A DNA stretch of 64,000 nt from Candidatus Daviesbacteria bacterium (GCA_016176465.1 JACOXD010000003.1:1824-65823), one strand, 5' to 3'; numbered from the stretch's first letter, positions 47,307 through 60,896 are shown. A program made the numbers and translations. The notes: a model not told the origin generated them from the letters alone.

Positions 47307-47351
47307 GGGTATATATTAGGGTAATAGGTTATAGGTAGCAAGTAATAGATG

Positions 47352-47423
47352 TGGCAGCGACAGGGATCGGACCTGTGACCTAAGCTTTATGAGGGCTCCG
47401 CTCTACCACTGAGCTACGCTGCC
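47352..47423 (-). tRNA. tRNA-Met (anticodon CAU), elongator-type (could instead be Ile2/lysidine)
   Basis: Hand-folded cloverleaf. Acceptor GGCAGCG/CGCUGCC is perfect. D-arm GCUC-AGUGGUA-GAGC. Anticodon loop CUCAUAA. T-loop UCCGAUC is atypical. Confidence 0.65.
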
Positions 47424-47792: not shown

Positions 47793-49739
47793 TTACTTTA
47801 CTCTCAAAGCTGCTTCTTTTGCTTTTAGATAGGCTTCCCAGACTGCATTGACTTTACCTGGATGTACTAACTTGATTTGGTCATTTACCATAATATAATG
47901 ATTCGCTTCTATTAATTTTTTCATTGCTGCGTGAGCCACTACTGGATCAGAGCTTTGTGATTGCTCCACCAACTGATCCAAGTTGTTAATATCTACTGGA
48001 AAATGCGCTCCCTCTGGTAAATGCCCTGCCTCTGCCATCGCTCCCCAATTGTCAATGAAAGTATCTTTATTGGCAAGGATATGTACAGCAAAAGTTTTAG
48101 CATCCTGCGGCCCCCAAGTTATATTATGCCCATGATCTATCAAGATTTGTCCCATGGTATTCCCTTGATGAACTTCTACTATATTGCCCATTTCTGGATG
48201 AGCATCGAAATCTGTAATTTCATTTATCTTGTTCAATATCAAATGCTGTTGGTATAAGTAATCCCTTAAAGCCTCCTTCGCAGTGTCCTGAAGGTGTTGG
48301 GAATAGAATGAGTCTGGAGATTTTAACTTATTTTCTAGGTACTCCTTACCTAAACTTTTTATTTCTTCAAAATTATCAAGATCGGGATTAGATGTATCCT
48401 CAGCTGCCTGTATAAGGTTTGCTCCAGCACTAGCTCTTAACTGCCCATAAGTATCCTGCCAGATTTGAGAGTAAGCTTCATTAGAGATTTGATCTGGAAC
48501 CATTCCTTTGGCTCTAATAGTTTCATCAACTATTTTATTAACTGTCTGAAAATTAGCCCTAGCTAACTCATCTTTTGCCTGAGCAAATTCAGGACTTTTA
48601 ATCATTTCTTTAACTGCTTCTGTTTCCGATGGAGTAAGAGCATCTTTATCTGGGTCAATAAGAGCTCCTGAGGTACCCACATTCTCATCTACTGGAGCAC
48701 CTTGGCCTACTACTTCATGAGGTTCGCTTATACCACTTCCTAACCTGCCTAAACTTTCCCTAACGCTAATTTGAGTTTCAGGAGCAGCGGGCACGGGTTC
48801 TGGAACATTAGGAAATTTAGGTGTTTCAGCCAATTCCCTTATAGGAGTAGTCACTGGAGTTGGTGTACCTTCAATAGTTGGTGTGGTTGGAGGAGTAGCA
48901 CTTTCAGTAGGAACTGGAGTTTCTACAGTAGTCGGAGTACTTTCAGGAGTTGGTGTATTCTCCAAAGCTTCTGCAGTAACAGTATCTGTAGGTTCTGGTG
49001 TGAGAGTAGCTGGCACTGTAGCAGTTGATGTAGCTTCAGGGGAAGGAGTGGCCTCTGGGGTAGGGGTTGCATCAGCAACAGTCTCAGAACTAGACCCTAT
49101 TGAACGAATGCTTCTTAATAAATTTCCTCCACTGTCCATTACATTTTGAAGTACATTACCAGGAGAAGGGAGGGAAACTTTTGGTAGTCTTTCTGCTGCG
49201 ACAGCCAAATTAATTCTAGAGATATACTCACTAATAGGAACACTTAAACCCATCTCAGCACTAATCTCTGGAGCAACAGCTGCAAAAACTCCCTCAATTG
49301 AAACTAAAGCAGCTCCTGCTGAAACTCCCAAAGCAAATTCTTTTAGATGGTGTGCAACTTTAGGATGGCTACTCTCAAGTACGCTTATCTTACTTAACAC
49401 TCCTCTTTCGCTTGCAAATACTGCTCCACTTAAAGCAAGCCTAAGACCAGTTCTTGCCAAAGGACTACCATTAAGCAAAACGCCACTCCCTACTCCAATG
49501 CCATATCCCACTCCCCAGGAATACCTACCTTCAGTAAATACTTTACGGGGAGCATCTAGAGGATTTGCATTTTGGGCCCATTTACCTAAACCTCTAGCAA
49601 AAGCTTTGCCAATACCGGCTGCAGAAATTCCTCTTCTTTCTGCTATAGGATTTTGGGCGGCATTTTCTGCTTCTATTTGGGCTGCAAAATTACCCCAGTC
49701 ATCTGCTCCTGGATTTGGCGCTTCTGCTGTTCTTGCCAT
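47793..49739 (-). CDS. large hypothetical protein with a Thr/Pro-rich low-complexity linker
   Basis: 648 aa. Gly-rich hydrophobic N-terminal region (GVGYGIGVGSGVLL...), a central (TPxPE)n linker, and a C-terminal domain with an HQGNTMGQILIDHGHNITWG motif of unknown function. Confidence 0.5.
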   Translation of the reverse strand: MARTAEAPNPGADDWGNFAAQIEAENAAQNPIAERRGISAAGIGKAFARGLGKWAQNANPLDAPRKVFTEGRYSWGVGYGIGVGSGVLLNGSPLARTGLRLALSGAVFASERGVLSKISVLESSHPKVAHHLKEFALGVSAGAALVSIEGVFAAVAPEISAEMGLSVPISEYISRINLAVAAERLPKVSLPSPGNVLQNVMDSGGNLLRSIRSIGSSSETVADATPTPEATPSPEATSTATVPATLTPEPTDTVTAEALENTPTPESTPTTVETPVPTESATPPTTPTIEGTPTPVTTPIRELAETPKFPNVPEPVPAAPETQISVRESLGRLGSGISEPHEVVGQGAPVDENVGTSGALIDPDKDALTPSETEAVKEMIKSPEFAQAKDELARANFQTVNKIVDETIRAKGMVPDQISNEAYSQIWQDTYGQLRASAGANLIQAAEDTSNPDLDNFEEIKSLGKEYLENKLKSPDSFYSQHLQDTAKEALRDYLYQQHLILNKINEITDFDAHPEMGNIVEVHQGNTMGQILIDHGHNITWGPQDAKTFAVHILANKDTFIDNWGAMAEAGHLPEGAHFPVDINNLDQLVEQSQSSDPVVAHAAMKKLIEANHYIMVNDQIKLVHPGKVNAVWEAYLKAKEAALRVK

Positions 49740-49789
49740 AATTTGCTTCCTATCTATAAATTACTATATACTAATGATACAGTATTCAT

Positions 49790-52700
49790 ATGGCTATGGC
49801 AAATGAAACCCAACATGAAGGAGAAAGTATTCAACCTCCTGTGTTTACAGAGGTGATGAGTAGTATCGGTGAAAAAATTAGTGCAGGGATTACTGATCAA
49901 AATGCTGCTTCTTTATTAAAAGATGTGTTAAATTTAGATCAAACTTTTCTACCTAATGGCAATAAAGCTACAACCAATGAAAAAGTACTAGCAAGAATAA
50001 GAGAGCCTCTATCTGGAAACCCAAGTGTTTTAAAAGAATTGGGAAAAAGGGGCTCAACAGCTATCTCTCTTGATCAATTGAGGCAAGTTGTTCGTCTTGC
50101 TGAAATTTTAGATATTAAAAATTTAGATGAATATCCCGGATTACTTGCAGCAATTAAAAGAGATATTGCTAGGGAGGAGTCTGCTCAAACTTCTCCTTCC
50201 CAAGCACATAAAGCAGCTATTCCCATTACCCCAGCTGAACCAGTTGTTACTTCTGCTTCTGAATTAAAACTAGAAGAATATTTATTACAAGAACTATTTA
50301 GGGAAGCTGCTCAACAAATAACAGAAAATGGTAGAGCAGAAATTCCTGCAAGTACTAAAATGCTTGGATGGTTAGTAGATGGAGCCTTAACAAGAGCTCT
50401 TGAAGAAAGAAGTATCCAACTTAGAGAACACTATGTTGATGCTTTTATTTTAGATCCTAAAACCCCTGGATTAATAAGATTTCAAACTAATATAGAGATG
50501 CAGAAACCTAATAAAATCATCAATTTAGATTTCGATGCCGTGATATCAGGAGCAAACTTAAGCGCAATATATTTCGTAAGTGATAAGGTAAGACAAGGAG
50601 TGCTTAGTAGAATAGCTAAACCATTTTTTAAAGACAGGTTTACAGAAGAACAGGAAATAAAGGAGATGCTTAGAACTAGGAAAGAAGCAAGAGCAAGTGG
50701 CGAAACTCCTCCCCTTCATAAAATTGTAGAATACTATCTTGCTTATCAATTCCAAAATTTGGGAGTAAAATTTGCTGGTTTGCAACTTAGGTGGGAAGGC
50801 CGACAATTAAAACTAATTTTTCAAGGCTCTGATTTATCTTCTACTATAGATGTCCCTGCTGATAGAGGTTCAACTAGGTTGGGGATCCCAGAAGATGGTT
50901 CTAGGGTTGTATTAGCTGATGCTACATCCCCTGAAGCAATATCTTCTCCTGCAGAAGAGGTTGAAGTGATTCCAGAAAATGTTAGAAAAATTATTGAGGA
51001 TTTAAGGAGTGCATACAAGGCTTATAATGATGCCTACTCCACTCAACCTGGAACGCAAACAGAGGAAGCCCTAGCAGATGTTCGTACCAAAGAAAGAGAG
51101 CTTAGTGAGGCATTAGGTTTAACAGGTGCTGAAAGTTATAAAGAGGTTGAGCTACTAAAAAAACTAGAATTGGAAGCTAAATATAATGATCTAGCATTAA
51201 CAGACACGAATAGAACATCTACATACCCTAATCCTCACTTAATCCTTGAGCTTTTTTCAGGTGCCCCCAATTACCTACGGCAAGCTGCTGCAGATTACTT
51301 CCAACATGCTAAATTGGCCACTCCTGCGGAGCACAGTGCCCAACTTGAGGAAGATTTAATGAAAATAGAAAAACTAACTAAACAGGCTGCAGTTGATATG
51401 GCCAAAAGAGCTGGTAGAGTGATAGGCGATATACTTTCATGGCGTATGTCAGTAGGACCATCATTTGATTATGACCAGGCCTTACGTAGATCAGACACTA
51501 TTCCCGAGCAGATAATAGCACTTTTTAAAGCTAAAAATAAAGCGGAATATAATAAGCTTAAACCAGCAGTAGATTTACAACAAGCAGTGAATGAGTTTAT
51601 TGATAGCTTAGCCAATCGAGCGCTACTTCGATTAGAATCCACCAATTTTCACTACCGGGATTTAATTGATCCATTTGAGAGTCATCAAGGACACGTTATT
51701 AAACTATTTGGTTGGATTAGAGATTCATATGGAGACCTAAAAACATATCCTCCCGAGTCCGATAATTATAATAATATTAAAAAAGGTATTAGAGCAGATG
51801 AGGAACAAATTTTAAATATCCTAGGTGTTACAATGCACCCTGAATATAGACAGCTTCTGTATGCTCATATAGGAGTTTTGCAGAAAATCTCTGAAGATAC
51901 TCCTCAAGAAAAATCTAATAAAGAACTTAATGATAAGTATACAAAAGCCTTAGAAAATTATAAAAAACTTCTTTTATCTGATAGTCCAAATTTTAAGAAT
52001 GTAGCTAGAGCTTTAAAGGTTGCCAGTATGGCCAGGATGAGAATGGAAAACGAGATGATGGAACGGGCTTTAGCTGCTCCAACACTCCGAGATGAATATA
52101 ATAGTGCTGATGGCGCTCGAAGGGCAGTTTTAGAAGATGAGTTAAGTACTCTTCTAGGATTATCCCCTGAAGATAATGGAAGAAGAATACACGAATTATA
52201 TATGCAATATAAATCTACAATTTTTAAAACTTTTGATCTCTCAGCTGAAATACCAATCCCTCCTGATGATTTTACAGGAAGGTTATTTAAGAAAGACACC
52301 GGAACTACAGATGCCTTTTTCAGATATCAATACATCTCAAAGAATATACTAGCTTTGCAAGCACAAGGAATAGAAGTATCGGATGAAGAATTGGCAGAAT
52401 ATCAAAGGGTTTTAGAAGAGCTAATAAATCTTTTTTATTTTGAAGCTGATGTTTCAGGAAGGCCTATATACTACAAACAAGGTGGGGAGTGGGCTGGTCA
52501 AGATTTAGTTGCAGCTATTGAGGGAGGAGAAAGTGAAGAAATGATCAAAACACTCTACATTAGGAGAAACCAGAGTATGATTAGGTTTTATCAGGAATTA
52601 TTAGATCAATCTACCTCCACAAAAATTAATGAGTACTTAAAAAATTTAGCACATGATGCAGGATTAGAATTTAGAACCTCAAGTATCCCTGGCCAACCAG

Positions 52701-53308
52701 CAAAATTAGTGGAGCTCCCTCCTTTGCCACAGCCCATTGTTGTGCCCCCACAAGCTCCAGCAATCGAACCTGCTCCAGCTGAGAGGAGATTGGATATTGA
52801 TATTGTTAATGTCATCAGCCAACTTGGAAAGCTTTATAAGGGTAAATCTGCAAAAACCTTGGAAGAAAGAGAGCAGCTGGAAGATCAAATTGCCAAATCC
52901 TTTGGGTTTGATGCAGACCGCGGATATCGCTCTTTGGTTGAGACCCTCAAATATCTCACGGACTTAATATCTTCTCGGGGATTAAAATTACCTAAGGCAA
53001 ACGAAGATTTAGGAATAATGTTTGTTACAAATAGAGATGAATATCTATCTTTGTTAGAGCAGGTTATACAGAAATTAGAAAAAAATGAGGATATTAAGCA
53101 AGATATACCACTTTTAGTAGGGGCTTTGCGAGATAGAAATTATGCTTTCCTTGCCAGAGAAATCGACAGATATGAACGTGCACTTCCCCCTGAGGAAAGA
53201 GAAAGGCTAATCACTGCTGGCATACTTCCTACACCAGCCGCAGTTTTATCTGAAAGTGGCTTTGTTCTAGGTAATGCCCACTTAGGTGAGCCTCAATCAG
53301 GAGAATAA
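49790..53308 (+). CDS. very large hypothetical protein (1172 aa), predominantly helical
   Basis: Uninterrupted ORF with no TM segments, signal peptide or catalytic motifs. Divergent from the 648-aa gene. Confidence 0.5.
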   Translation: MAMANETQHEGESIQPPVFTEVMSSIGEKISAGITDQNAASLLKDVLNLDQTFLPNGNKATTNEKVLARIREPLSGNPSVLKELGKRGSTAISLDQLRQVVRLAEILDIKNLDEYPGLLAAIKRDIAREESAQTSPSQAHKAAIPITPAEPVVTSASELKLEEYLLQELFREAAQQITENGRAEIPASTKMLGWLVDGALTRALEERSIQLREHYVDAFILDPKTPGLIRFQTNIEMQKPNKIINLDFDAVISGANLSAIYFVSDKVRQGVLSRIAKPFFKDRFTEEQEIKEMLRTRKEARASGETPPLHKIVEYYLAYQFQNLGVKFAGLQLRWEGRQLKLIFQGSDLSSTIDVPADRGSTRLGIPEDGSRVVLADATSPEAISSPAEEVEVIPENVRKIIEDLRSAYKAYNDAYSTQPGTQTEEALADVRTKERELSEALGLTGAESYKEVELLKKLELEAKYNDLALTDTNRTSTYPNPHLILELFSGAPNYLRQAAADYFQHAKLATPAEHSAQLEEDLMKIEKLTKQAAVDMAKRAGRVIGDILSWRMSVGPSFDYDQALRRSDTIPEQIIALFKAKNKAEYNKLKPAVDLQQAVNEFIDSLANRALLRLESTNFHYRDLIDPFESHQGHVIKLFGWIRDSYGDLKTYPPESDNYNNIKKGIRADEEQILNILGVTMHPEYRQLLYAHIGVLQKISEDTPQEKSNKELNDKYTKALENYKKLLLSDSPNFKNVARALKVASMARMRMENEMMERALAAPTLRDEYNSADGARRAVLEDELSTLLGLSPEDNGRRIHELYMQYKSTIFKTFDLSAEIPIPPDDFTGRLFKKDTGTTDAFFRYQYISKNILALQAQGIEVSDEELAEYQRVLEELINLFYFEADVSGRPIYYKQGGEWAGQDLVAAIEGGESEEMIKTLYIRRNQSMIRFYQELLDQSTSTKINEYLKNLAHDAGLEFRTSSIPGQPAKLVELPPLPQPIVVPPQAPAIEPAPAERRLDIDIVNVISQLGKLYKGKSAKTLEEREQLEDQIAKSFGFDADRGYRSLVETLKYLTDLISSRGLKLPKANEDLGIMFVTNRDEYLSLLEQVIQKLEKNEDIKQDIPLLVGALRDRNYAFLAREIDRYERALPPEERERLITAGILPTPAAVLSESGFVLGNAHLGEPQSGE

Positions 53309-53319
53309 TTAATTTTTTG

Positions 53320-53636
53320 TTGCGGGGGTTGGATTCGAACCAACGACCTCGAGATTATGCCTAGATATCTAGTTAGACTATACCTTCACCCCGATGTTAT
53401 ATATCGGGGGCTCGGCGTTTAATGGGAGTTTATATTCCAAAATATTTGGTACCTTCCATATAAGCAAAGCTTGATGCTTCGCATTAAGTCGTTACGGGGT
53501 CCGATGTTACATCGGACTTCCCACGGTATTATCCTTTAACTTAAGATTTCACCGTTATGAGCCGAGTTATCATTAAAGATTACTCTCTAATGAGCCCAAT
53601 TTTGAGCCTCGCGAGCTACCACTGCTCTACCCCGCG
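53320..53636 (-). tRNA. initiator tRNA-fMet (CAU) interrupted by a group I intron (exon 1 = 53605..53636; exon 2 = 53320..53359)
   Basis: Exon 1 CGCGGGG-UA-GAGC-AGUGGUA-GCUC-G-CGAGG-CU and exon 2 CAUAA-UCUCG-AGGUC-GUUGG-UUCGAAU-CCAAC-CCCCGCA-A fold into a cloverleaf. C1·A72 mismatch (initiator hallmark), U8, canonical T-loop. Confidence 0.65.
53360..53604 (-). other. group I self-splicing intron (~245 nt) in the anticodon loop of tRNA-fMet, between positions 33 and 34
   Basis: 5' exon ends in U. The intron starts CAAAAUUGGGCUC, an IGS-like sequence complementary to exon GAGGCU. P7-like pair GACUUAAUG ... GGUAUAGUC. Hairpins UCCGAUGUAACAUCGGA and CCCCGAUAUAUAACAUCGGGG. Terminal hairpin CUAGAUAUCUAG then omega-G. 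No ORF inside. Confidence 0.6.
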
Positions 53637-53675: not shown

Positions 53676-54032
53676 TCAATAGAAGCCAAATAATTTTAGC
53701 CAGCCCTGCCAATTAGATAGTTTAATTTCTTCTTTCCCTTTATTTAAACTCAAAACCTTTTTCACCTCAGATTCGGGAATTATTACTATAACCTCATTTT
53801 CCTTGGCTAAACCAAGCTTATCGCGAGCCTGCTCCTCAATAAAATCTAACCTTTGGGTATCTTTTAATTTTTCCTTTAATAACCTATTTTCCTGCTGCAG
53901 CCTAACTAAGCGCTCAGTAGTAGTATCAAGCCTATCTCCAGCCTGCAATGCTCCTATAATCTGCCTTCCCAGACTGATTATTACTAAGATTATGAGCAAA
54001 GTTATGACAATAATTACTGCTTTTCTAATCAT
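53676..54032 (-). CDS. septum-formation initiator family protein (FtsB/DivIC-like)
   Basis: Single N-terminal TM, a coiled coil (LQQENRLLKEKL), then the FIEEQARDKLGLAKENEVIV motif. Confidence 0.55.
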   Translation of the reverse strand: MIRKAVIIVITLLIILVIISLGRQIIGALQAGDRLDTTTERLVRLQQENRLLKEKLKDTQRLDFIEEQARDKLGLAKENEVIVIIPESEVKKVLSLNKGKEEIKLSNWQGWLKLFGFY

Positions 54033-54063: not shown

Positions 54064-55005
54064 TTGACAATAATATCCTTTTTTAATATTATATGGGATA
54101 ATAGATACATAAGTATGGTTACTCTGCGTGATGCCCATCAACAATTTATTGGCCATTTAAAGGGGCGCTCACGTGCCTCAGCTACTATCTTAGCTTATGG
54201 TAAGGATATTGAGCAACTCGTCTCCTATTTAGTCGAACAAGGCAAACAAAATGCCCAGGATATTATCTTAGAGGATTTGAATGCCTTCATGGCTAAACTC
54301 TCTAAAGAAGGCTATACCGCTAAATCAATCTCCAGGAAGACTAATTCCACAAAAACTTTCTTTAAATTCTTAAAAACTTCTAATTTAATTGAAAATGATC
54401 CAGCCGGCGCACTTGAGCATCCAAAATTTGAGAATAAACCTCCCAGAATTTTATCTAAATTAGAATATCGAGCGCTAAGAGATGCAGCCAGAGGGGATCT
54501 TCGAATTTTTGCCATTATTGAGCTACTTTTGCAAACCGGGATTAGAATTGGAGAACTAGCCCAACTTAGTGTAGATGATTTGGATTTATCCTCTGATTCC
54601 CCCACTCTTCATGTCCCAGAAGGTGAAGGCAGCAATGCCAGAGATATTCCACTTAATAAACCAGCAGTTGAAGCAGTACAAAAGTATTTAGAGGTTAGGC
54701 CTAAAACTCCAAATGATAGAAGCTCATCTTTGACTAAAGCATTATTTGTAACCAAAACAGGAAGGCCCTTACTTGTTAGAAATATAAGAACTGCAATTGA
54801 TAGATACTTTAAGTTAGCAGGGATAAAAGATGCTAAGGTAAATGATTTAAGACATACTTGGGTAGCTCATCATTTAGAGGCTGGCACTTCTTTGACTTTA
54901 ATCTCCAAACTAGCTGGGCATAAAAGAGTTTCTACTACTGAAAGATACCTACAATTTATCCAAAACCGCTCAACTGATAGCAAAGTAAAGCTAGAAGAAC
55001 TCTGA
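54064..55005 (+). CDS. tyrosine-type site-specific recombinase/integrase
   Basis: C-terminal catalytic region LRHTWVAHHLEAGTSLTLISKLAGHKRVSTTERYLQ (R...HxxR...Y), plus an N-terminal SAM-like domain. Confidence 0.8.
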   Translation: MTIISFFNIIWDNRYISMVTLRDAHQQFIGHLKGRSRASATILAYGKDIEQLVSYLVEQGKQNAQDIILEDLNAFMAKLSKEGYTAKSISRKTNSTKTFFKFLKTSNLIENDPAGALEHPKFENKPPRILSKLEYRALRDAARGDLRIFAIIELLLQTGIRIGELAQLSVDDLDLSSDSPTLHVPEGEGSNARDIPLNKPAVEAVQKYLEVRPKTPNDRSSSLTKALFVTKTGRPLLVRNIRTAIDRYFKLAGIKDAKVNDLRHTWVAHHLEAGTSLTLISKLAGHKRVSTTERYLQFIQNRSTDSKVKLEEL

Positions 55006-55107
55006 AATGGAACGCATTATTTGCCCACTTAATCGTAGTGCAGATTGTATACAAGTTCACACCCTCAGGGTGGGTTACGTTCACACCTTACTATACTAAT
55101 ACCCTAC

Positions 55108-55139
55108 TGGCGGACCCGGACTCGATCGAACCAGGAACC
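55108..55139 (-). repeat. degenerate duplicate of the tRNA-Ile 3' half (att-like direct repeat)
   Basis: ggcggacccggactcgatcgaaccaggaacc is near-identical to ggcggacctggactcgaaccaggaacc at 55444..55471, apart from a small internal insertion. It lies 100 bp downstream of the integrase gene. Confidence 0.5.
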
Positions 55140-55157
55140 AACCCTGCACTATAATAA

Positions 55158-55424
55158 CTAAACTGAATAGACTAATGTTCCTGGTTTGGTGGGCTGTGAA
55201 ACTTTTAGACCAAAGGAGTCACCTTTTTTAACAGAGTCTACCTGTTGATGATCAACTTGTAGTGATTCCACATTTTGATTAAACTCTTCCTCTTCCCCTC
55301 TTTTAAACTTTAGCTTATCTCCCACTTTTAATCCTCCAGAATCTAAATCTATAATTGCTACTCCTAATTTGTCATAGTAGTGGGTAACTTTACCTATTTG
55401 TTTATCCAAATTTCTCACCCCCAA
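55158..55424 (-). CDS. small hypothetical protein (beta-barrel-like)
   Basis: 88-aa ORF lying between the tRNA-fragment repeat and the intact tRNA. Confidence 0.3.
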   Translation of the reverse strand: MGVRNLDKQIGKVTHYYDKLGVAIIDLDSGGLKVGDKLKFKRGEEEEFNQNVESLQVDHQQVDSVKKGDSFGLKVSQPTKPGTLVYSV

Positions 55425-55442
55425 TCAAAATAGAGCCTGTTG

Positions 55443-55516
55443 TGGGCGGACCTGGACTCGAACCAGGAACCGGAAATGTATAAGATTTCTGCGCTAACCA
55501 ATTGCGCCATCCGCCC
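55443..55516 (-). tRNA. tRNA-Ile (anticodon UAU)
   Basis: Clean cloverleaf. Acceptor GGGCGGA/UCCGCCC. D-arm GCGC-AAUUGGUUA-GCGC. Anticodon stem GAAAU/AUUUC with loop CUUAUAC (U33, anticodon UAU, A37). T-loop UUCGAGU. A73. Confidence 0.75.
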
Positions 55517-55525
55517 TACCAGGGG

Positions 55526-56230
55526 CTAATTATACCAAAAGATTTCATCTTTAACTCCATAATAATTTGATACAGCTTTTATAGACATAGCTATTTTCTC
55601 ACTTAAATTAACCCTATGCGTATAAATCTGACATGTACCATACCCAAAGCTTTTATATATTAAACCTTCTCTAGTTGAGTCTTTAATATAAGGTCCTCCA
55701 AATTGATTTTTTGGCAAGTTTAAATGGTTTGACCAGAAATTAGTGACTTCTTCAAAATTCATATCTTTATAAATGTGTAGGCGTACTTTTATGGAGTTTT
55801 TTGGAACACCCAAAACCTTAGTCATCCAATATAGCGCAAACTTAATAACTCTTGGGTCCGTATTACTAATCGAGAATCTTCCATGTTTTTTCTCTCCCTC
55901 ACCCCAATACAAAAATACCCCTGCCAAAAAAAGCTCTTTTTTAGACAAAGGTAATAATTCTTTAACTTGTTTTTCAAAAACCTGCTTCAATCTAAATAAT
56001 CGCTTACTCTTGAACGTTTCAATAAACTTTTCTCTTGATAAATCTCTAGATAACATTTTGTTTTTTAGAAGTTTTACCTGTTGAGTTTTGTTTAAAGGAA
56101 GTCTTTTTAACCAATCACTTAATGTACTTTTGGAAACACCTAATTCTTTTTTAATTTGACCATAGGTTTTTCCTCTTAATCGAAGTTTAATCGCCTGCTC
56201 ACGAAGAAATATTTTAGACATCGTACCCAT
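55526..56230 (-). CDS. HTH-domain protein (possible LAGLIDADG-like C-terminal region)
   Basis: N-terminal HTH (YGQIKKELGVSKSTLSDWLKRL). C-terminal FLAGVFLYWGEGEKKHGRF only loosely resembles the LAGLIDADG core. Confidence 0.45.
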   Translation of the reverse strand: MGTMSKIFLREQAIKLRLRGKTYGQIKKELGVSKSTLSDWLKRLPLNKTQQVKLLKNKMLSRDLSREKFIETFKSKRLFRLKQVFEKQVKELLPLSKKELFLAGVFLYWGEGEKKHGRFSISNTDPRVIKFALYWMTKVLGVPKNSIKVRLHIYKDMNFEEVTNFWSNHLNLPKNQFGGPYIKDSTREGLIYKSFGYGTCQIYTHRVNLSEKIAMSIKAVSNYYGVKDEIFWYN

Positions 56231-56267
56231 AGATTGTATCCCCCAAGACAGTCAATGTAAAGTACAA

Positions 56268-58631
56268 TTATAGTTTTGCCCTAGATGCTATCTCTGCCTC
56301 TACTGCTCTTTTATCCCTTCCATAAGTTAACCTGGATAACTCTTTAATTGCCCTTCCCACCTCTGGCCTCATCATGGCATACCAAGCTTTCATATCTTTT
56401 TGAACGTTTAGAGAAAAAGGTGGAATTGGCTCTCCATGAACTTGGGTTTTAACATATAAAGTGTGAGCAGCAATATTAACTAAATCTTGTTCATTAAAAA
56501 TGGGTGCAAATTCATGTTGTAAAAAGTTAGCATCTGTTACACCTACCCTATATGCCATGACAGTTCCAACATTTCCAAAGATAGCATTTTTAATATTTTC
56601 ATCAATTTGTCCAATAAACTGGTTAGCTACTATTAAATTTAATTTATACTTTCTGGCTTCAGATAAAATGGAAGCAAAAGTGTCAGTGGCAAAGTTTTGG
56701 AATTCATCTACATAAAGGTAAAAATCCCGCCTTTTGTTCTCAGGTGTATCAGCCCGAGACATTGCTGTTGCTAAAATCCGAGGAACTAAAACTAATCCCA
56801 AAAAGTTAGAGTTATCCTCACCCATTTTTCCCTTGGATAAATTAACTATCAAGATTTTGCCATCATCCATAATTTTTCGTAAATCAAATGAAGGTTTTGA
56901 TTGACCAATTATATTTCTAATCATCATATTGGTAACAAATTTTCCAAACTTGGAAACAAAATAATCAAGCGTTTCAGATTTGTGAAACTCAGTTGTTTGA
57001 GCTATTTGATCTGTCCAGTATCTTCTAACAATAGGATCTGCTACTAAGGGCAAAATCTCTCTAACAAATTGTGGATCAGTTAGTGCCCTAACAACCTCAA
57101 TTAAAGTCCCACCAGGCATGGACATAACTGTTAAAAGCGAGTTTCGAACAGCATGCTCTAAGCGGGGACCAATAATCCCGGTATGGTTTGGATCATAAAG
57201 TTTATAAAGCAAACCAATGATTGATTCCACCACAAAATGTTTTTGCTGTTCGCTTATATGCTCCAGCATATTCATTCCAAAAGGACGCTCAACATCAGAG
57301 GGGTCCCAATAAACTACATCTTTTGCCCGATTTGGTGGAATTAAATTCAAAAGTTCATCTGCAGCATCACCGTGTGGATCAATAAAAGCCAAACCTTTAT
57401 TAGCTAAAACATCTTGCAAAGCAAGTGATAATAAAAACTGTGATTTACCAACGCCGGTTCTTCCAATAATGTACATATGACGCTGGCGATCGGAATCGGA
57501 AATATAAACCGGACGCTGTGTCCCTCTAAAAATAGACTTACCAAGGTATAGTCCAAACATTGGGATTTTCTCTGAAGCTGGAGCATGCCTGGCCGGAAGC
57601 CAGTAGATAAAGGGGGTTTCAATAGATTTATTTGGAAAATGAAAAATGGAGGCAATTTCATCTGATGTTAAAACAGGCAATTTTGAAAACATTGGCTGAT
57701 ACCGATAGATAAAATCAACCATGAATCCTTTTTCCGATCTAATTTTTGCCCCACTAAACCCATTGTAAGCTCCTGAGAATTGCTCAAAGGCTGAGCGTAT
57801 GTTAGATAAATGAGCTTTAGCAGTATCTTTGCTACTTGAGGAAACTACAATCCTTACTGCTACATTAAACCCAGGCTTAGAGAGTTTATTTTCTACAGCT
57901 TCCAGCTGTTTTTGATCAGGAGGAGCTTTAGGTTTATCTCCTGTTCCAGGATCCTTTTCTTTTTTCAAAAATGATTTACCCGAATCTTTCCAGTTACCCT
58001 CTGCTGGAGAGATCATAATTTGAATAGCGGCTCCCTCACCTGGTTGCATTTTGGCTAAGGCGGAGGTAATCGCGGATAAAGGATCAGTTGGTAATTCCCT
58101 ATATGTTTTAATTGGGAAGTAGTTGGTATTTTTTAGTTTTAACATGGCATAAGCTACTTGACCTTCTTCTGAGAAAATATTGTATTCTTGAACTTCCTTT
58201 ACTTCAGCATCAGGATAAGCTCCATTAATTTGTTTTTCGACTAAATCCTGGTGTTTTTTATGGCAAGCGATGTAAAATTTAATTGATTCATTTAAAGCAA
58301 TAATTTCAAAAGATAAATGCGGTTGGGGTTTTAAAAATCCAAATATTCCCCCGCCTGTTTTTATAGAATAAAAAGTAGCGAGAAGTTGCTCTGCGGCATC
58401 AATTTTTATCTCATTTCCCCTGGGAACCGATATTTGAAGTAAAACAAACTCCAAGGAATCTCTTTCTCTATTTTTATACTTAATCCAACCAATAATTAAA
58501 GGAGATAAAAAATATAAAGCTAAAGCTACACCTGCAAAAATAAATAAGAAAATAAAAATAGATCCCAGTAAGGATAAGAAATCTATGTTAGTAGTGGTGG
58601 TTTGACTTGTAACTGCTCCGGTATATTCCAT
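56268..58631 (-). CDS. TraG/VirD4/TraD-like (AAA_10) membrane-associated ATPase, conjugation-coupling-protein-like
   Basis: Two N-terminal TM helices. Walker A IIGRTGVGKSQFL followed by IDPHGD. Walker B-like LYVDEFQNF. About 787 aa. Confidence 0.55.
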   Translation of the reverse strand: MEYTGAVTSQTTTTNIDFLSLLGSIFIFLFIFAGVALALYFLSPLIIGWIKYKNRERDSLEFVLLQISVPRGNEIKIDAAEQLLATFYSIKTGGGIFGFLKPQPHLSFEIIALNESIKFYIACHKKHQDLVEKQINGAYPDAEVKEVQEYNIFSEEGQVAYAMLKLKNTNYFPIKTYRELPTDPLSAITSALAKMQPGEGAAIQIMISPAEGNWKDSGKSFLKKEKDPGTGDKPKAPPDQKQLEAVENKLSKPGFNVAVRIVVSSSSKDTAKAHLSNIRSAFEQFSGAYNGFSGAKIRSEKGFMVDFIYRYQPMFSKLPVLTSDEIASIFHFPNKSIETPFIYWLPARHAPASEKIPMFGLYLGKSIFRGTQRPVYISDSDRQRHMYIIGRTGVGKSQFLLSLALQDVLANKGLAFIDPHGDAADELLNLIPPNRAKDVVYWDPSDVERPFGMNMLEHISEQQKHFVVESIIGLLYKLYDPNHTGIIGPRLEHAVRNSLLTVMSMPGGTLIEVVRALTDPQFVREILPLVADPIVRRYWTDQIAQTTEFHKSETLDYFVSKFGKFVTNMMIRNIIGQSKPSFDLRKIMDDGKILIVNLSKGKMGEDNSNFLGLVLVPRILATAMSRADTPENKRRDFYLYVDEFQNFATDTFASILSEARKYKLNLIVANQFIGQIDENIKNAIFGNVGTVMAYRVGVTDANFLQHEFAPIFNEQDLVNIAAHTLYVKTQVHGEPIPPFSLNVQKDMKAWYAMMRPEVGRAIKELSRLTYGRDKRAVEAEIASRAKL

Positions 58632-59108
58632 TTATGCTGCTCCCCTTTGACCTTGGGATTTTAATTTATTTGGATCTACTAAAACAACTTTTGAACCTGG
58701 GTGGCGTTTATACATTTTCCCTTTTAATAATGTAAGGAAGGGTTTGTTCGCTCCGGTTTTGTCAGTGTGAGTAGGATCACCACTTTTTGTTAACTTATCA
58801 ATTGGATCACTGGCTACACTTCCTAAAACCTCTAAATGACCCTTTACTATATCAATTGGACCTTCTGACTCCTGAGCGCCTACACTTGTTTCTCCATCAT
58901 ATTGTGAACTTGTCTCAACTACTTCTTGAGTTGCTGGAGGTCTGGAATTATGTATTTCACTGGTAGCTTCCCTGGCTTGCTGATCTATTTTTTTATGAGA
59001 CTCTTCCAATTCCTCATCAACAACTGTTAAATAAGGAACTCTTTTTTCTTTTACAGATAGAGTATCACTTTCTTTTAGGGCAGATGACATAAAATAATTA
59101 TAGCGCAA
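58632..59108 (-). CDS. hypothetical protein
   Basis: 158-aa acidic ORF adjacent to the ATPase gene. Confidence 0.35.
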   Translation of the reverse strand: MRYNYFMSSALKESDTLSVKEKRVPYLTVVDEELEESHKKIDQQAREATSEIHNSRPPATQEVVETSSQYDGETSVGAQESEGPIDIVKGHLEVLGSVASDPIDKLTKSGDPTHTDKTGANKPFLTLLKGKMYKRHPGSKVVLVDPNKLKSQGQRGAA

Positions 59109-59150
59109 CAGAGTAAAAGTAAGGAGAACTAGCTTATTAATTATACTATT

Positions 59151-59957
59151 TTAAAGCTGCTCTAGACCTTCTAGAACCCTTATCCATCTTTGCACCTCAG
59201 GTTTTTGTGCCATTTCCGGAGACCACATTCTTCCTTCTTGTATATATCTATCCATCCCCACTCTCTCTGAAACAAACCCATATATAGTTTCATTAACCCT
59301 ACTTTTATATCCTTGGCTATCCCAGCGAAGTTGCCAAGGAGTACAGCCAGCAATAGTATCTAGCACAAAAAGCATGAATTCAGTAAGCTGAATAGCCCGT
59401 CGGTTATAGGCCGGGCTAGCCGATGAATGATGATAAAATTTAACAGCAAGTGTTTGTTTTACAAAATCCTTACTACTATTAAACCCATCTACAAATCTAG
59501 TCCAACTAAAGCGATCTTCGGGAAACTTCGATAGATTTACTATTGTTTCTGGATCTAAAATCGGAGGTTTAATCTCGGGTAACCGATTAAGCTGTTGCCA
59601 TGCCTGATCCAAGCTATCTTTTACCTTTGCAGGTAATTGCTGAAAGTTTTGAGCTCGCTCCAGCACCTCAGCAATCATATGTCGTCGTAACACCTGTAGG
59701 TTAGTATGTAGTAGGACAAACGGACTATTTATAAATGCCCCCACCGGATCCTCTACAGCTACCAGTCCACCACTATTCTCCATAACATAGGTAGCAACCT
59801 CTATAGTGGGGAATACTCCTACTATCAATTGCTCATAATATCCGCTCATCAACCTATCATCTCTAGGACTAACTGTTTTGACATTTAATCCATGTTCCCG
59901 CTGAGCCTGTCTCCATTCCAAAACTCGATCTAGCGCTTCTAAATAACCCCCATTCAT
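59151..59957 (-). CDS. hypothetical protein
   Basis: 268-aa ORF with GC content above the local mean. Contains a small palindrome agcccgtcgg...ccgggct. Confidence 0.4.
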   Translation of the reverse strand: MNGGYLEALDRVLEWRQAQREHGLNVKTVSPRDDRLMSGYYEQLIVGVFPTIEVATYVMENSGGLVAVEDPVGAFINSPFVLLHTNLQVLRRHMIAEVLERAQNFQQLPAKVKDSLDQAWQQLNRLPEIKPPILDPETIVNLSKFPEDRFSWTRFVDGFNSSKDFVKQTLAVKFYHHSSASPAYNRRAIQLTEFMLFVLDTIAGCTPWQLRWDSQGYKSRVNETIYGFVSERVGMDRYIQEGRMWSPEMAQKPEVQRWIRVLEGLEQL

Positions 59958-59990: not shown

Positions 59991-60896
59991 TCAATCTAAA
60001 TATTCTTCTACATCTAAGGCTGCCATACACCCTGCTCCAGCTGCTGTTACTGCTTGCCTGTAGTGATGATCTGAAACATCCCCAGCTGCAAAAATCCCAT
60101 TTATGGATGTTTTAGTATGATTCTTAACAACTATATAGCCTTTTTCATCAAGCTCTATTTCTCCTGTTAAAAAGAAAGTGTTGGGTTTATGACCAATTGC
60201 GATAAATACTCCATCCATCTCTAGCTTACTAATCTTTCCTGTTTGAGTATTTTTTAATCTCACTCCCTTAACTTTTTCTTCTCCCAAAACTTCCTCTAAA
60301 GTAGTGTTCATCATAAATTCCACATTAGGTTTACTCCTAACCAAACTAACTAAAACAGGCTGAGCCCTAAACTCTTCACGACGATGGATTAAAATTATTT
60401 TTTTACCAAACTTGGCTAAATGTTGAGCCTCTCTCATTGCAGTATCTCCTCCTCCAACAACCAAAATATTTTTTTCCTTGAAAAAAAACCCATCACAAAC
60501 AGCACAGGCGGAAACCCCTTTACCAATAAGGCGTTGCTCCGATTCTAAATTCAACCACATTGCTGATGCTCCTGTGGCAATGATAACGCTTTTGGTTTTT
60601 AGCGTTTGGCTTTCGGTTTGGATTTCAAAAGGCCTATTCTTAAAATTAACTGACAAAACATCTTCATCTAAAAATTTTGTTTTGAATCTCTCTGCCTGGG
60701 CGCGCATTTTTAGCATTAAATCAGGACCCTGGATCCCCTCCGGAAATCCCGGGAAATCATCAACATCAGTTGTTAACATTAACTGCCCCCCAGCTCCTCT
60801 TCCAGAAATAACCAAAGGATCCAAATTTCCCCGGGATGCATAGATAGCAGCTGTTAAGCCAGCCGGACCAGAACCAATAATAACTACTTTTTCCAT
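59991..60896 (-). CDS. trxB: thioredoxin-disulfide reductase
   Basis: FAD-binding motif GSGPAGLTAAIY, redox-active CAVCDG, NADPH-binding motif GGGDTA. Confidence 0.9.
   Translation of the reverse strand: MEKVVIIGSGPAGLTAAIYASRGNLDPLVISGRGAGGQLMLTTDVDDFPGFPEGIQGPDLMLKMRAQAERFKTKFLDEDVLSVNFKNRPFEIQTESQTLKTKSVIIATGASAMWLNLESEQRLIGKGVSACAVCDGFFFKEKNILVVGGGDTAMREAQHLAKFGKKIILIHRREEFRAQPVLVSLVRSKPNVEFMMNTTLEEVLGEEKVKGVRLKNTQTGKISKLEMDGVFIAIGHKPNTFFLTGEIELDEKGYIVVKNHTKTSINGIFAAGDVSDHHYRQAVTAAGAGCMAALDVEEYLD

Follow-up and report, generated by a model that had tools for sequence, protein, structure and literature searches.

The stretch of 64,000 nucleotides (nt) from a Candidatus Daviesbacteria bacterium analysed here (GCA_016176465.1, JACOXD010000003.1:1824-65823; hereafter the window, with positions counted from its first letter) carries, between 53.3 and 60.9 kb, a tRNA-Ile(UAU) gene lying directly behind HTH231, a gene for a protein of 231 amino acids (aa) in which a helix-turn-helix (HTH) is joined to a LAGLIDADG-like domain. 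This region is probably a vertically inherited core neighbourhood of the Daviesbacteria chromosome (candidate phyla radiation (CPR)/Microgenomates), in which the HTH-LAGLIDADG-like gene, by a putative cleavage of DNA, provokes breakage of the tRNA gene and its patch repair. The unstable or mobile part of the region is the tRNA-Ile(UAU) gene itself, physically coupled to HTH231; the tyrosine recombinase and the ATPase encoded on either side of it, which a preliminary description had taken for parts of an integrated island, are resident genes.

The window was compared with a close set of eight Daviesbacteria loci (L001-L008), with an ATPase identity of 68-84%, and with a distant set of 80 metagenome loci retrieved with the HTH protein as query. 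In the window the order is a thioredoxin-reductase-like gene (TrxR), a variable slot, a small open reading frame (ORF), an ATPase of DUF8128/VirD4-like type, HTH231, tRNA-Ile(UAU), a second variable slot, a convergent gene for a Xer-like recombinase, DivIC and an intron-bearing tRNA-fMet (Table 1). The succession of TrxR, short variable stretch, ATPase, tRNA-Ile(UAU), opposite-strand recombinase, DivIC and tRNA-Met recurs in all eight Daviesbacteria relatives, and that of ATPase, tRNA-Ile, recombinase and DivIC in about 45 of the 80 metagenome loci, at identities down to 51-60% for the ATPase and of 41-74% for the recombinase. The region is flanked by housekeeping genes (aminoacyl-tRNA synthetase, citrate synthase and succinyl-CoA-ligase-like genes). 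Three places differ between relatives, namely the slot between TrxR and the ATPase, the HTH gene, and a second slot that reaches from the tRNA to the recombinase.

HTH231 is coupled to tRNA-Ile(UAU)

HTH231 consists of an N-terminal homeodomain-like HTH, a long helix of 45 residues and a single LAGLIDADG-like domain, and it has more than 500 close homologues; almost every one measures 231 aa, and contigs of about 1 kb carry many of them. In the window the tRNA gene starts 9 nt past the stop codon of HTH231. Among the loci in which the distance could be assessed (the window, L008 and metagenome loci), a same-strand tRNA-Ile(tat) starts between -100 and +65 nt from that stop in 76 of 77, with a median spacing of about +12 nt and an overlap of exactly 10 nt in nine loci; L052 is the sole exception, and one further locus is cut inside the tRNA. 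Even where the rest of the neighbourhood is different, tRNA-Val, -Ala or -Ser lying downstream and both ATPase and recombinase being absent from the vicinity, the coupling is kept. The fixed spacing is explained by a likely promoter element within the gene: TTTTGGTATAAT, the sequence that codes for the invariant F-W-Y-N at the C-terminus, forms a perfect extended -10 box ending 12 nt before the tRNA. The corresponding TGGTATAAT box of the window is likely to be the tRNA-Ile promoter; for lack of a -35 box beside it, a promoter scan left it out. In L052, where 134 nt are left 3' of the HTH gene (5664-5797), this stretch holds no tRNA-Ile; it retains the TGGTATAAT box, behind which stands a GC-rich hairpin (ccaccgcctctggcggtg).

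Among the close relatives HTH231 is present in L008, as in the window, and absent from L001-L003 and L005-L007, in all of which the tRNA is retained. L001 and L002 still have the last 15 nt of HTH231, ttttggta[tc]aatta[ga], before the tRNA, so the gene must have been deleted there. The absence from L001-L003 could also suggest a recent insertion of the HTH gene, a candidate that we rejected, since the 80 metagenome loci show the gene to be ancestral at this place and deleted in some Daviesbacteria.

Replacement of tRNA-Ile alleles and the scars beside them

The tRNA-Ile alleles are replaced far faster than the neighbouring tRNA-Met genes. When two genomes agree at 78% or more in the ATPase, their tRNA-Ile genes mostly share an identity of 0.62-0.76, against 0.89-0.99 for the orthologous tRNA-Met of the same loci; L001 and L005, for example, agree at 89% in the ATPase, at 92% in tRNA-Met and at 68% in tRNA-Ile. 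The distances of ATPase and tRNA-Ile correlate weakly (Spearman 0.23). The effect is strong only in such close pairs, being modest when all loci are taken together (0.69 for tRNA-Ile versus 0.75-0.78 for tRNA-Met).

Besides the window, at least nine loci have remnants of a tRNA-Ile flanking the intact gene, among them L003, L006, L030, L037, L040, L059, L063/L065 and L087. In L037 (5664-5847) 110 nt that hold a complete and different tRNA-Ile stand inside an older tRNA-Ile, precisely between A35 and T36 of its anticodon, the centre of the palindrome TTATAA, and in L040 (5706-5897) an older tRNA-Ile is likewise broken inside TTATAA, with a complete tRNA-Ile nested in it. The rejoined old halves of both loci form a valid tRNA-Ile(tat) according to ARAGORN, and L087 and L006 show the same nested layout in a more decayed state. 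The inserted pieces begin 5-7 nt before the new tRNA in L037 and L040 (15 nt in the decayed L087), approximately where its transcript would start. A complete tRNA nested within another cannot be produced by reciprocal site-specific recombination, whereas a double-strand break in the anticodon arm followed by a patch can yield it. Other scars are simpler; in L063/L065, for instance, 3'-only remnants start at base 46.

Two observations belong beside these scars. L030 (1751-1783) and L087 (3240-3262), which are unrelated, have in common the 17-mer cggcgggcaggtaagat, placed directly after the intact tRNA-Ile and before the old 3' remnant. In L037 a copy of a tRNA-Met 5' half (3328-3360), a scar of the kind found at tRNA-Ile, lies 17 nt upstream of a complete tRNA-Met (3378-3451).

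In the window, the remnant at 55109-55139 agrees with tRNA bases 45-72 (55445-55471) in 26 of 27 positions and has 4 nt inserted in its T loop, where TCGA is duplicated. This copy lies on the strand of the tRNA, 303 nt 3' of it and 103 nt from the stop of the convergent recombinase (55005). The preliminary description had seen in this repeat the trace of an insertion, and the similarity is indeed well above chance (score 38 in a local alignment of the tRNA to both strands of the 64-kb window, against 24 for the best other alignment). The repeat is a genuine scar of DNA insertion on the 3' side of the tRNA, which is an indel hot spot between relatives, and this remnant is absent from the seven close relatives tested for it (L001-L007). 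The segment bounded by the repeat has as its sole gene one for an 83-aa protein resembling domain 2 of EF-Tu, which is present in L001, L002 and L004 and absent from L003, L005, L007 and L008; its start is placed at 55409 by comparison with the L001 orthologue and by an upstream ribosome-binding site, and its exact sequence had no match in the protein collection looked up.

The slot to which this segment belongs, from the tRNA 3' end to the recombinase stop, measures 4-2777 nt across 46 loci and is filled with unrelated small genes (EF-Tu-domain-2-like, NUDIX, cupin, GNAT, deaminase, membrane proteins), and in none of the 46 was an integrase, excisionase or phage gene found. In the window it consists of the 83-aa gene, the remnant and about 100 nt, and of this last stretch roughly the final 30 nt resemble the recombinase 3' flank of L012. 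The 152-nt spacer, considered as a repeated element or structured RNA, has no other copy in the window or the loci and no match in Rfam, the resemblance to L012 being confined to its final 30 nt or so. A capture site of the integron or IMEX kind was also considered for the slot and set aside, kept merely as a rival, since the 46 slots contain no mobility genes and, except for the window and L063/L065, no recombination-site repeats.

A LAGLIDADG-like domain in a very large family

An exhaustive HMMER search (E <=1e-3) gathered the HTH-LAGLIDADG-like family into 5206 clusters at 50% identity, mostly of about 225 aa and including some tandem fusions. The profile of 82 diverse members (33% mean identity) matched the homing endonuclease I-DmoI in the PDB at E 6.4e-5 and seven further I-DmoI variants at 2-3e-4, and of the searches made for this domain only the one with this broad profile gave a significant match. 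Profile positions 74-140 align to I-DmoI residues 84-148, a stretch that takes in the second LAGLIDADG helix together with the first strand and the helix after it. The near-invariant family motif LYWGEGxK (GEGxK) falls on LYVAEGDK (AEGDK) of I-DmoI; E108 of the family falls on E117, the catalytic residue of I-DmoI, and K111 on K120, both family residues being conserved at 90% or more. There are 55 invariant columns in 24 sequences of the HTH231 family, a sign of strong purifying selection. We interpret HTH231 as a free-standing homing-endonuclease-like gene tied to tRNA-Ile(UAU).

Narrower searches gave less. Pfam detects only the N-terminal HTH of the family, apart from one distant tandem fusion that matches LAGLIDADG_3 at E 0.027; a profile of 24 sequences had no significant match in the PDB, and hhalign against I-CreI found nothing. 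The AF2 model of HTH231 has a pLDDT of 95.5.

An abundance of LAGLIDADG genes is known from CPR bacteria (PMC11270868, PMC11809585), the first of these sources making no mention of tRNA or of free-standing genes. With the LAGLIDADG homing endonucleases, namely I-DmoI and the intron-encoded enzymes of CPR 16S and 23S rRNA insertions, HTH231 shares a profile-level similarity and the conserved acidic residue and lysine. It differs from them in not being intron-encoded, in having one motif only together with an N-terminal HTH and the 45-residue helix, in being matched by no Pfam LAGLIDADG model and in a fold similarity that is not significant. No description of an HTH-LAGLIDADG-like family locked to tRNA genes was found in the literature searched.

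Relatives of HTH231 at other tRNA genes

The family is not confined to tRNA-Ile. A paralogue in L004, 34% identical to HTH231, defines a subfamily of 226 aa. Each of the four loci with DNA has its gene divergent from an intron-split tRNA-fMet, with 70-120 nt between the gene start and the 5' end of the tRNA (Table 1), and at a fifth place, without DNA, there is a matching gap after DivIC. In 2.9 million viral contigs one distant homologue (32% identity) was detected; this phage gene (L092 4001-4683, on a 340-kb IMG/VR contig) ends 9 nt before a tRNA-Val(tac), in a cluster of seven tRNA genes. The search was made with a viral origin of HTH231 in view and yielded no other homologue. Relatives tied to other tRNA genes are the pattern of free-standing homing endonucleases.

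The window itself carries the tRNA-fMet intron without the 226-aa paralogue. The intron, 245 nt long and ORF-less, lies in the anticodon loop and matches the whole Rfam Intron_gpI model at 41.8 bits (E 1e-8; gathering score 50); that of L089, at the homologous position, reaches 73.7 bits. The joined exons form a valid tRNA-Met(cat) by ARAGORN, and both ARAGORN and Rfam in gathering mode overlook the split gene. An uninterrupted orthologue is found in L001 (13900-13972), and split tRNA-Met genes also in at least ten fetched loci. In its site, an anticodon loop, it is like the known group I introns of bacterial tRNA genes (cyanobacterial tRNA-fMet and tRNA-Leu, Azoarcus tRNA-Ile), and as in these its boundaries can be set so that U closes the 5' exon and G the intron; the differences are that the host is here a CPR bacterium and that the copy of the window lies below the Rfam gathering score.

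The layout of paralogue and intron-split tRNA-fMet resembles collaborative homing, which has been described beside ORF-less introns (PMC3984707). More widely, the arrangement recalls intronless homing, known from SegB in the tRNA cluster of phage T4 (PMC2330249), and collaborative homing as in F-CphI/psbA and mobE/nrdB, in having a gene of a nuclease family outside any intron or intein and beside a conserved gene, in its presence and absence between close relatives and in the replacement of neighbouring DNA. Unlike SegB, which is a GIY-YIG enzyme in a phage, HTH231 is a cellular protein with an HTH and a single LAGLIDADG-like domain. It also differs from systems of the SegB type in being retained over a deep phylogeny at one tRNA species, in the overlap of its last codons with the tRNA promoter, and in a DNA cleavage that is, for HTH231, putative.

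Further observations concern the surroundings of tRNA-Met. Small genes of the GIY-YIG nuclease family (about 80 aa) recur beside the tRNA-Met of relatives (L001 14036-14285, L004 5132-5377, L006 11627-11866, L008 6970-7215, L091 2245-2508 and 3681-3923), and the matching part of the window showed none. There, the gap from the intron-bearing tRNA-fMet to a second tRNA-Met (47351-47423) is spanned by two large ORFs of 648 aa (- strand) and 1172 aa (+ strand) without Pfam or NCBIfam match; this stretch (47793-53308) is another variable slot, because the relatives have quite different genes there.

Proposed mechanism

We propose that HTH231 acts, or recently acted, as a free-standing homing endonuclease on the tRNA-Ile(UAU) DNA of other alleles. 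The likely cut site would be the pseudo-palindromic anticodon-arm DNA around TTATAA. Repair of the break from incoming or alternative DNA would replace the tRNA allele, and imprecise repair would strand pieces of the old tRNA beside the new one. The ancestor of the window would have had HTH231, tRNA-Ile, about 100 nt and the recombinase in this order, like the relatives without the small gene. Its tRNA gene would have been broken, the favoured agent being the neighbouring LAGLIDADG-like protein or an allele of it. At the left end, homology repair would have copied the 3' part of a donor tRNA with the downstream EF-Tu-domain-2-like gene, in the arrangement seen in L001, L002 and L004; the right end would have been joined inside the old tRNA, at about base 45, leaving its 3' part stranded next to the native 3' flank of the recombinase.

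Several points weigh against this proposal. The Pfam LAGLIDADG models matched none of 24 family members, even at E up to 10, and Foldseek gave nothing significant against the PDB and BFVD, with I-DmoI at rank 47 (E 0.30). In the model the predicted order of elements is alpha-beta-alpha-beta-alpha-beta-beta-alpha and not the textbook LAGLIDADG order alpha-beta-beta-alpha-beta-beta-alpha. The support for a nuclease consists of profile homology and of indirect signs, namely presence and absence, allele turnover and scars in the anticodon. The remnant of the window begins at about base 45, outside the anticodon loop, and bounds one gene in the manner of attL and attR, as it also would after the action of an integrase. 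In L037 and L040 the old 5' half is still attached to the HTH gene, so that endonuclease gene and new tRNA did not arrive together. Finally, the distances of HTH231 and of the recombinase each correlate with those of the ATPase (Spearman 0.49, 17 loci), for which reason the inheritance of HTH231 looks largely vertical, as for a useful resident gene; in a search for horizontal transfer, its distance matrices were no more incongruent than those of the recombinase.

Alternative explanations

The preliminary description had read the region as an island carrying the integrase and the TraG/VirD4-like ATPase as cargo. The pieces it named all exist: the tyrosine recombinase ORF beside the tRNA (with its real start probably at 54115, giving 296 aa identical to NCBI MBI2011255.1), the HTH protein, the 787-aa ATPase and two ORFs without assigned function across the tRNA, and the repeat of the tRNA 3' part, whose coordinates needed a slight correction (Table 1) and outside of which the recombinase lies, as had been noted. 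A larger conjugative or integrative island, made up of recombinase, HTH protein, ATPase and these ORFs and with its true boundaries elsewhere, could draw on the tyrosine recombinase adjoining a tRNA with a duplicated 3' part and on the weak TraG/VirD4/TraD-type matches of the ATPase, and the recombinase within 103 nt of a direct repeat of T-arm and acceptor segment, with variable content 3' of the tRNA, is what tRNA-integrated islands and prophages have in common with the window. The relatives, however, speak against it. Recombinase and ATPase are conserved in order in all eight close relatives and about 45 of the 80 metagenome loci, the gene order being identical in every relative examined, and the comparison of synteny, a test set beforehand, disclosed no empty site free of recombinase and ATPase, only the 83-aa gene and HTH231 being variable. 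Since the preserved gene order is the outcome that had been named in advance as refuting it, the island reading falls. The ATPase family has thousands of uniform members in the lineage; no further copy of the tRNA 3' part exists in the window on either strand, and a window-wide repeat search returned chance-level families only. No relaxase, VirB4, other type IV secretion system (T4SS), excisionase or phage gene was found among the ORFs of the region and its flanks scanned with Pfam, and the flanks are of housekeeping type. The elevated GC content formerly noted holds weakly for orf268 (0.415, against a window mean of 0.360, with a standard deviation of 0.032 and a range of 0.287-0.439 in 800-nt windows) and fails for the HTH gene, which at 0.305 is the regional low; most genes lie at 0.35-0.39 and those of the region at 0.305-0.415, so that no compositional break was seen. 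From tRNA-integrated islands and prophages the window differs in a recombinase that is a conserved resident outside the repeat, in the lack of mobility genes and in a bounded segment of 303 nt with one 83-aa gene, and an island of the larger kind is very improbable.

Two explanations on a smaller scale deserve more weight. In one, the resident Xer-like enzyme, or a foreign integrase since lost, inserted a cassette or circle with the EF-Tu-domain-2-like gene site-specifically into the 3' part of tRNA-Ile, so that T-arm and acceptor were duplicated as attL and attR and the distal copy decayed. The direct repeat of tRNA bases 45-72 or so around a single gene is what this predicts, and it agrees also with the absence of that gene from L003, L005, L007 and L008, where the tRNA ends 4-65 nt from the recombinase stop (466 nt, of other sequence, in L003), with the variable length and unrelated contents of the slot, with the remnants from base 46 in L063/L065 and with a recombinase that adjoins tRNA-Ile over great evolutionary depth. 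But the recombinase lies outside the repeat-bounded segment, all 46 slots lack integrase, excisionase and phage genes, a repeat at the far end of the cargo is found in the window only, L001, L002 and L004 have the same gene without it, and the nested tRNA-in-tRNA scars are impossible by reciprocal recombination; we regard this integration as rather unlikely. In the other, HTH231 is no longer a nuclease but a domesticated DNA- or RNA-binding partner that serves tRNA-Ile by promoter control or maturase-like help, the remnants being products of illegitimate recombination or replication slippage that took place independently of it in a compact genome. LAGLIDADG proteins that act as maturases or as regulators of the WhiA type are precedents for such a role, and the near-universal coupling and tight spacing, the C-terminus doubling as an extended -10 box, the largely vertical pattern of inheritance and the strong purifying selection would all suit it. 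Yet HTH231 has been deleted in six of the nine Daviesbacteria loci with the tRNA kept, and is therefore dispensable for the tRNA; the residues aligned to E117 and K120 of I-DmoI are near-invariant across the 82 sequences; the breakpoints cluster in the anticodon; and relatives are tied to different tRNA genes, one of them intron-bearing and one in a phage (cf. PMC3984707, PMC2330249). We consider domestication unlikely, and the breakage and patch repair of tRNA-Ile(UAU) provoked by HTH231 remains the preferred explanation.

Neighbouring genes

The features of the region are listed in Table 1.

Table 1. Positions of the features between 53.3 and 60.9 kb of the window, with the loci of the 226-aa paralogues
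Feature	Position	Strand	Evidence and remarks
TrxR, thioredoxin-reductase-like flavoprotein	59991..60896	-	Pfam Pyr_redox_2 1.8e-52; left anchor; 66-73% identical and syntenic in L001-L007
orf268, hypothetical protein	59151..59957	-	Identical to NCBI MBI2011260.1 ('hypothetical protein'); GC 0.415
orf152, small acidic ORF	58632..59090	-	Gene model confirmed by exact sequence look-up
ATPase, 787 aa, DUF8128 and VirD4/TraG/HerA-type	56268..58631	-	PF26449; Walker A and B
HTH231, 231 aa, HTH and LAGLIDADG-like	55526..56221	-	Pfam HTH_23 1.4e-6; profile match to I-DmoI
TGGTATAAT, extended -10 box	55529..55537	-	Sequence inspection; within the last codons of HTH231
tRNA-Ile(UAU), intact	55442..55516	-	ARAGORN; Rfam tRNA 66.1 bits
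83-aa EF-Tu-domain-2-like protein	55158..55409	-	Pfam GTP_EFTU_D2 2.1e-4, below cut-off
tRNA-Ile 3' remnant	55109..55139	-	Local alignment score 38
Xer-like tyrosine recombinase, 296 aa	54115..55005	+	Pfam Phage_integrase 1.2e-29, Phage_int_SAM_1 2.6e-13
DivIC/FtsB septum-formation initiator	53676..54032	-	Pfam DivIC 2.2e-14; right anchor, divergent from recombinase; syntenic in relatives
tRNA-fMet-type gene split by group I intron	53318..53636	-	Exon 1 53636-53605, intron 53604-53360, exon 2 53359-53318
226-aa paralogues of HTH231	L004 5981-6658; L089 3001-3678; L090 101-781; L091 3001-3678	opposite to tRNA-fMet	

The recombinase is, judged from its domains and its setting, a resident Xer-like enzyme. 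It has both Xer-type domains (PF02899 and PF00589), and its best NCBIfam models are XerC (172.2 bits, cut-off 335), XerD (165.6, cut-off 329.6) and XerA (147.3, cut-off 220), all below their cut-offs; in L001-L008 it is syntenic and 68-80% identical. No paralogue of it, or of the ATPase, was found in the window. With the Xer recombinases of dimer resolution (XerC/XerD, XerS/XerH/XerA) it has in common the two-domain architecture, the best-scoring models and a fixed chromosomal position beside a cell-division gene, divIC. It differs in scoring about half of the equivalog cut-offs, and its conserved adjacency to a tRNA and a variable slot is not a described feature of Xer.

The ATPase has 5883 homologues, uniformly about 780 aa long and marked by PF26449 (DUF8128), on which no literature was found, and it is syntenic in all Daviesbacteria relatives. 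Its sequence has a visible hydrophobic N-terminal segment, a Walker A motif GRTGVGKS at residue 390 and a Walker B motif YLYVDE at 638, and on these features it is a predicted membrane-anchored protein with DUF8128 at the N-terminus and a divergent P-loop part of VirD4/TraG/HerA type at the C-terminus. The matches that bear on the kinship with TraG/VirD4/TraD formerly proposed are weak: in Pfam, DUF87 scores 23.7 bits (cut-off 23.2), TraG-D_C 23.2 (22), T4SS-DNA_transf 20.0 (20.1) and TrwB 19.1 (20.5), all borderline, and in NCBIfam SXT_TraD (41.8 against 366) and CedB (27.1 against 700) lie far below theirs. What the ATPase of the window shares with VirD4/TraG/TraD, HerA/FtsK and CedB, the archaeal DNA importer, is the membrane anchor at the N-terminus and the P-loop with its two Walker motifs, but the matches to type IV coupling proteins, HerA and FtsK are at or below threshold and the large N-terminal DUF8128 is specific to the family. 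Type IV coupling proteins differ further in that the ATPase of the window is a syntenic core gene, with no relaxase or T4SS partner in the window flanks or in the loci of relatives.

Directly upstream, the stop of orf152 abuts the start of the ATPase. The product is acidic, of low complexity and probably disordered. An acidic ORF of 125-159 aa occupies the same position in L005, L006 and L007, the position being kept without detectable sequence similarity, and the ORF at this place may be a fast-evolving partner of the ATPase. The variable slot between TrxR and the ATPase operon is filled in the window by orf268, which has no Pfam or NCBIfam match and no tblastn match in 88 loci.

Implications

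For annotation, a false island call is removed: a tyrosine recombinase beside a tRNA and a VirD4-like ATPase are core chromosome in these CPR genomes. The region shows one tRNA gene replaced far faster than its neighbours and points to an unrecognised and very abundant endonuclease-like gene family that is locked to particular tRNA genes. Tentatively, the whole family, with its more than 5000 clusters at 50% identity, mostly from CPR and annotated as 'helix-turn-helix' or 'hypothetical', may consist of tRNA-gene-specific homing endonucleases, each subfamily being devoted to one tRNA gene and cutting the palindromic anticodon-arm DNA of rival alleles, so as to drive a replacement of tRNAs ('tRNA gene homing') from which scars and slots would result. 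The intron-bearing tRNA-fMet with its adjacent free-standing paralogue offers a natural system for collaborative homing in cells. Were HTH231 an active nuclease, it would be the cellular counterpart of the SegB-type homing of tRNA regions in phages, it would explain tRNA remnants that mimic att sites, and it would supply compact homodimeric LAGLIDADG enzymes whose targets, the anticodon arms of tRNA genes, can be predicted.

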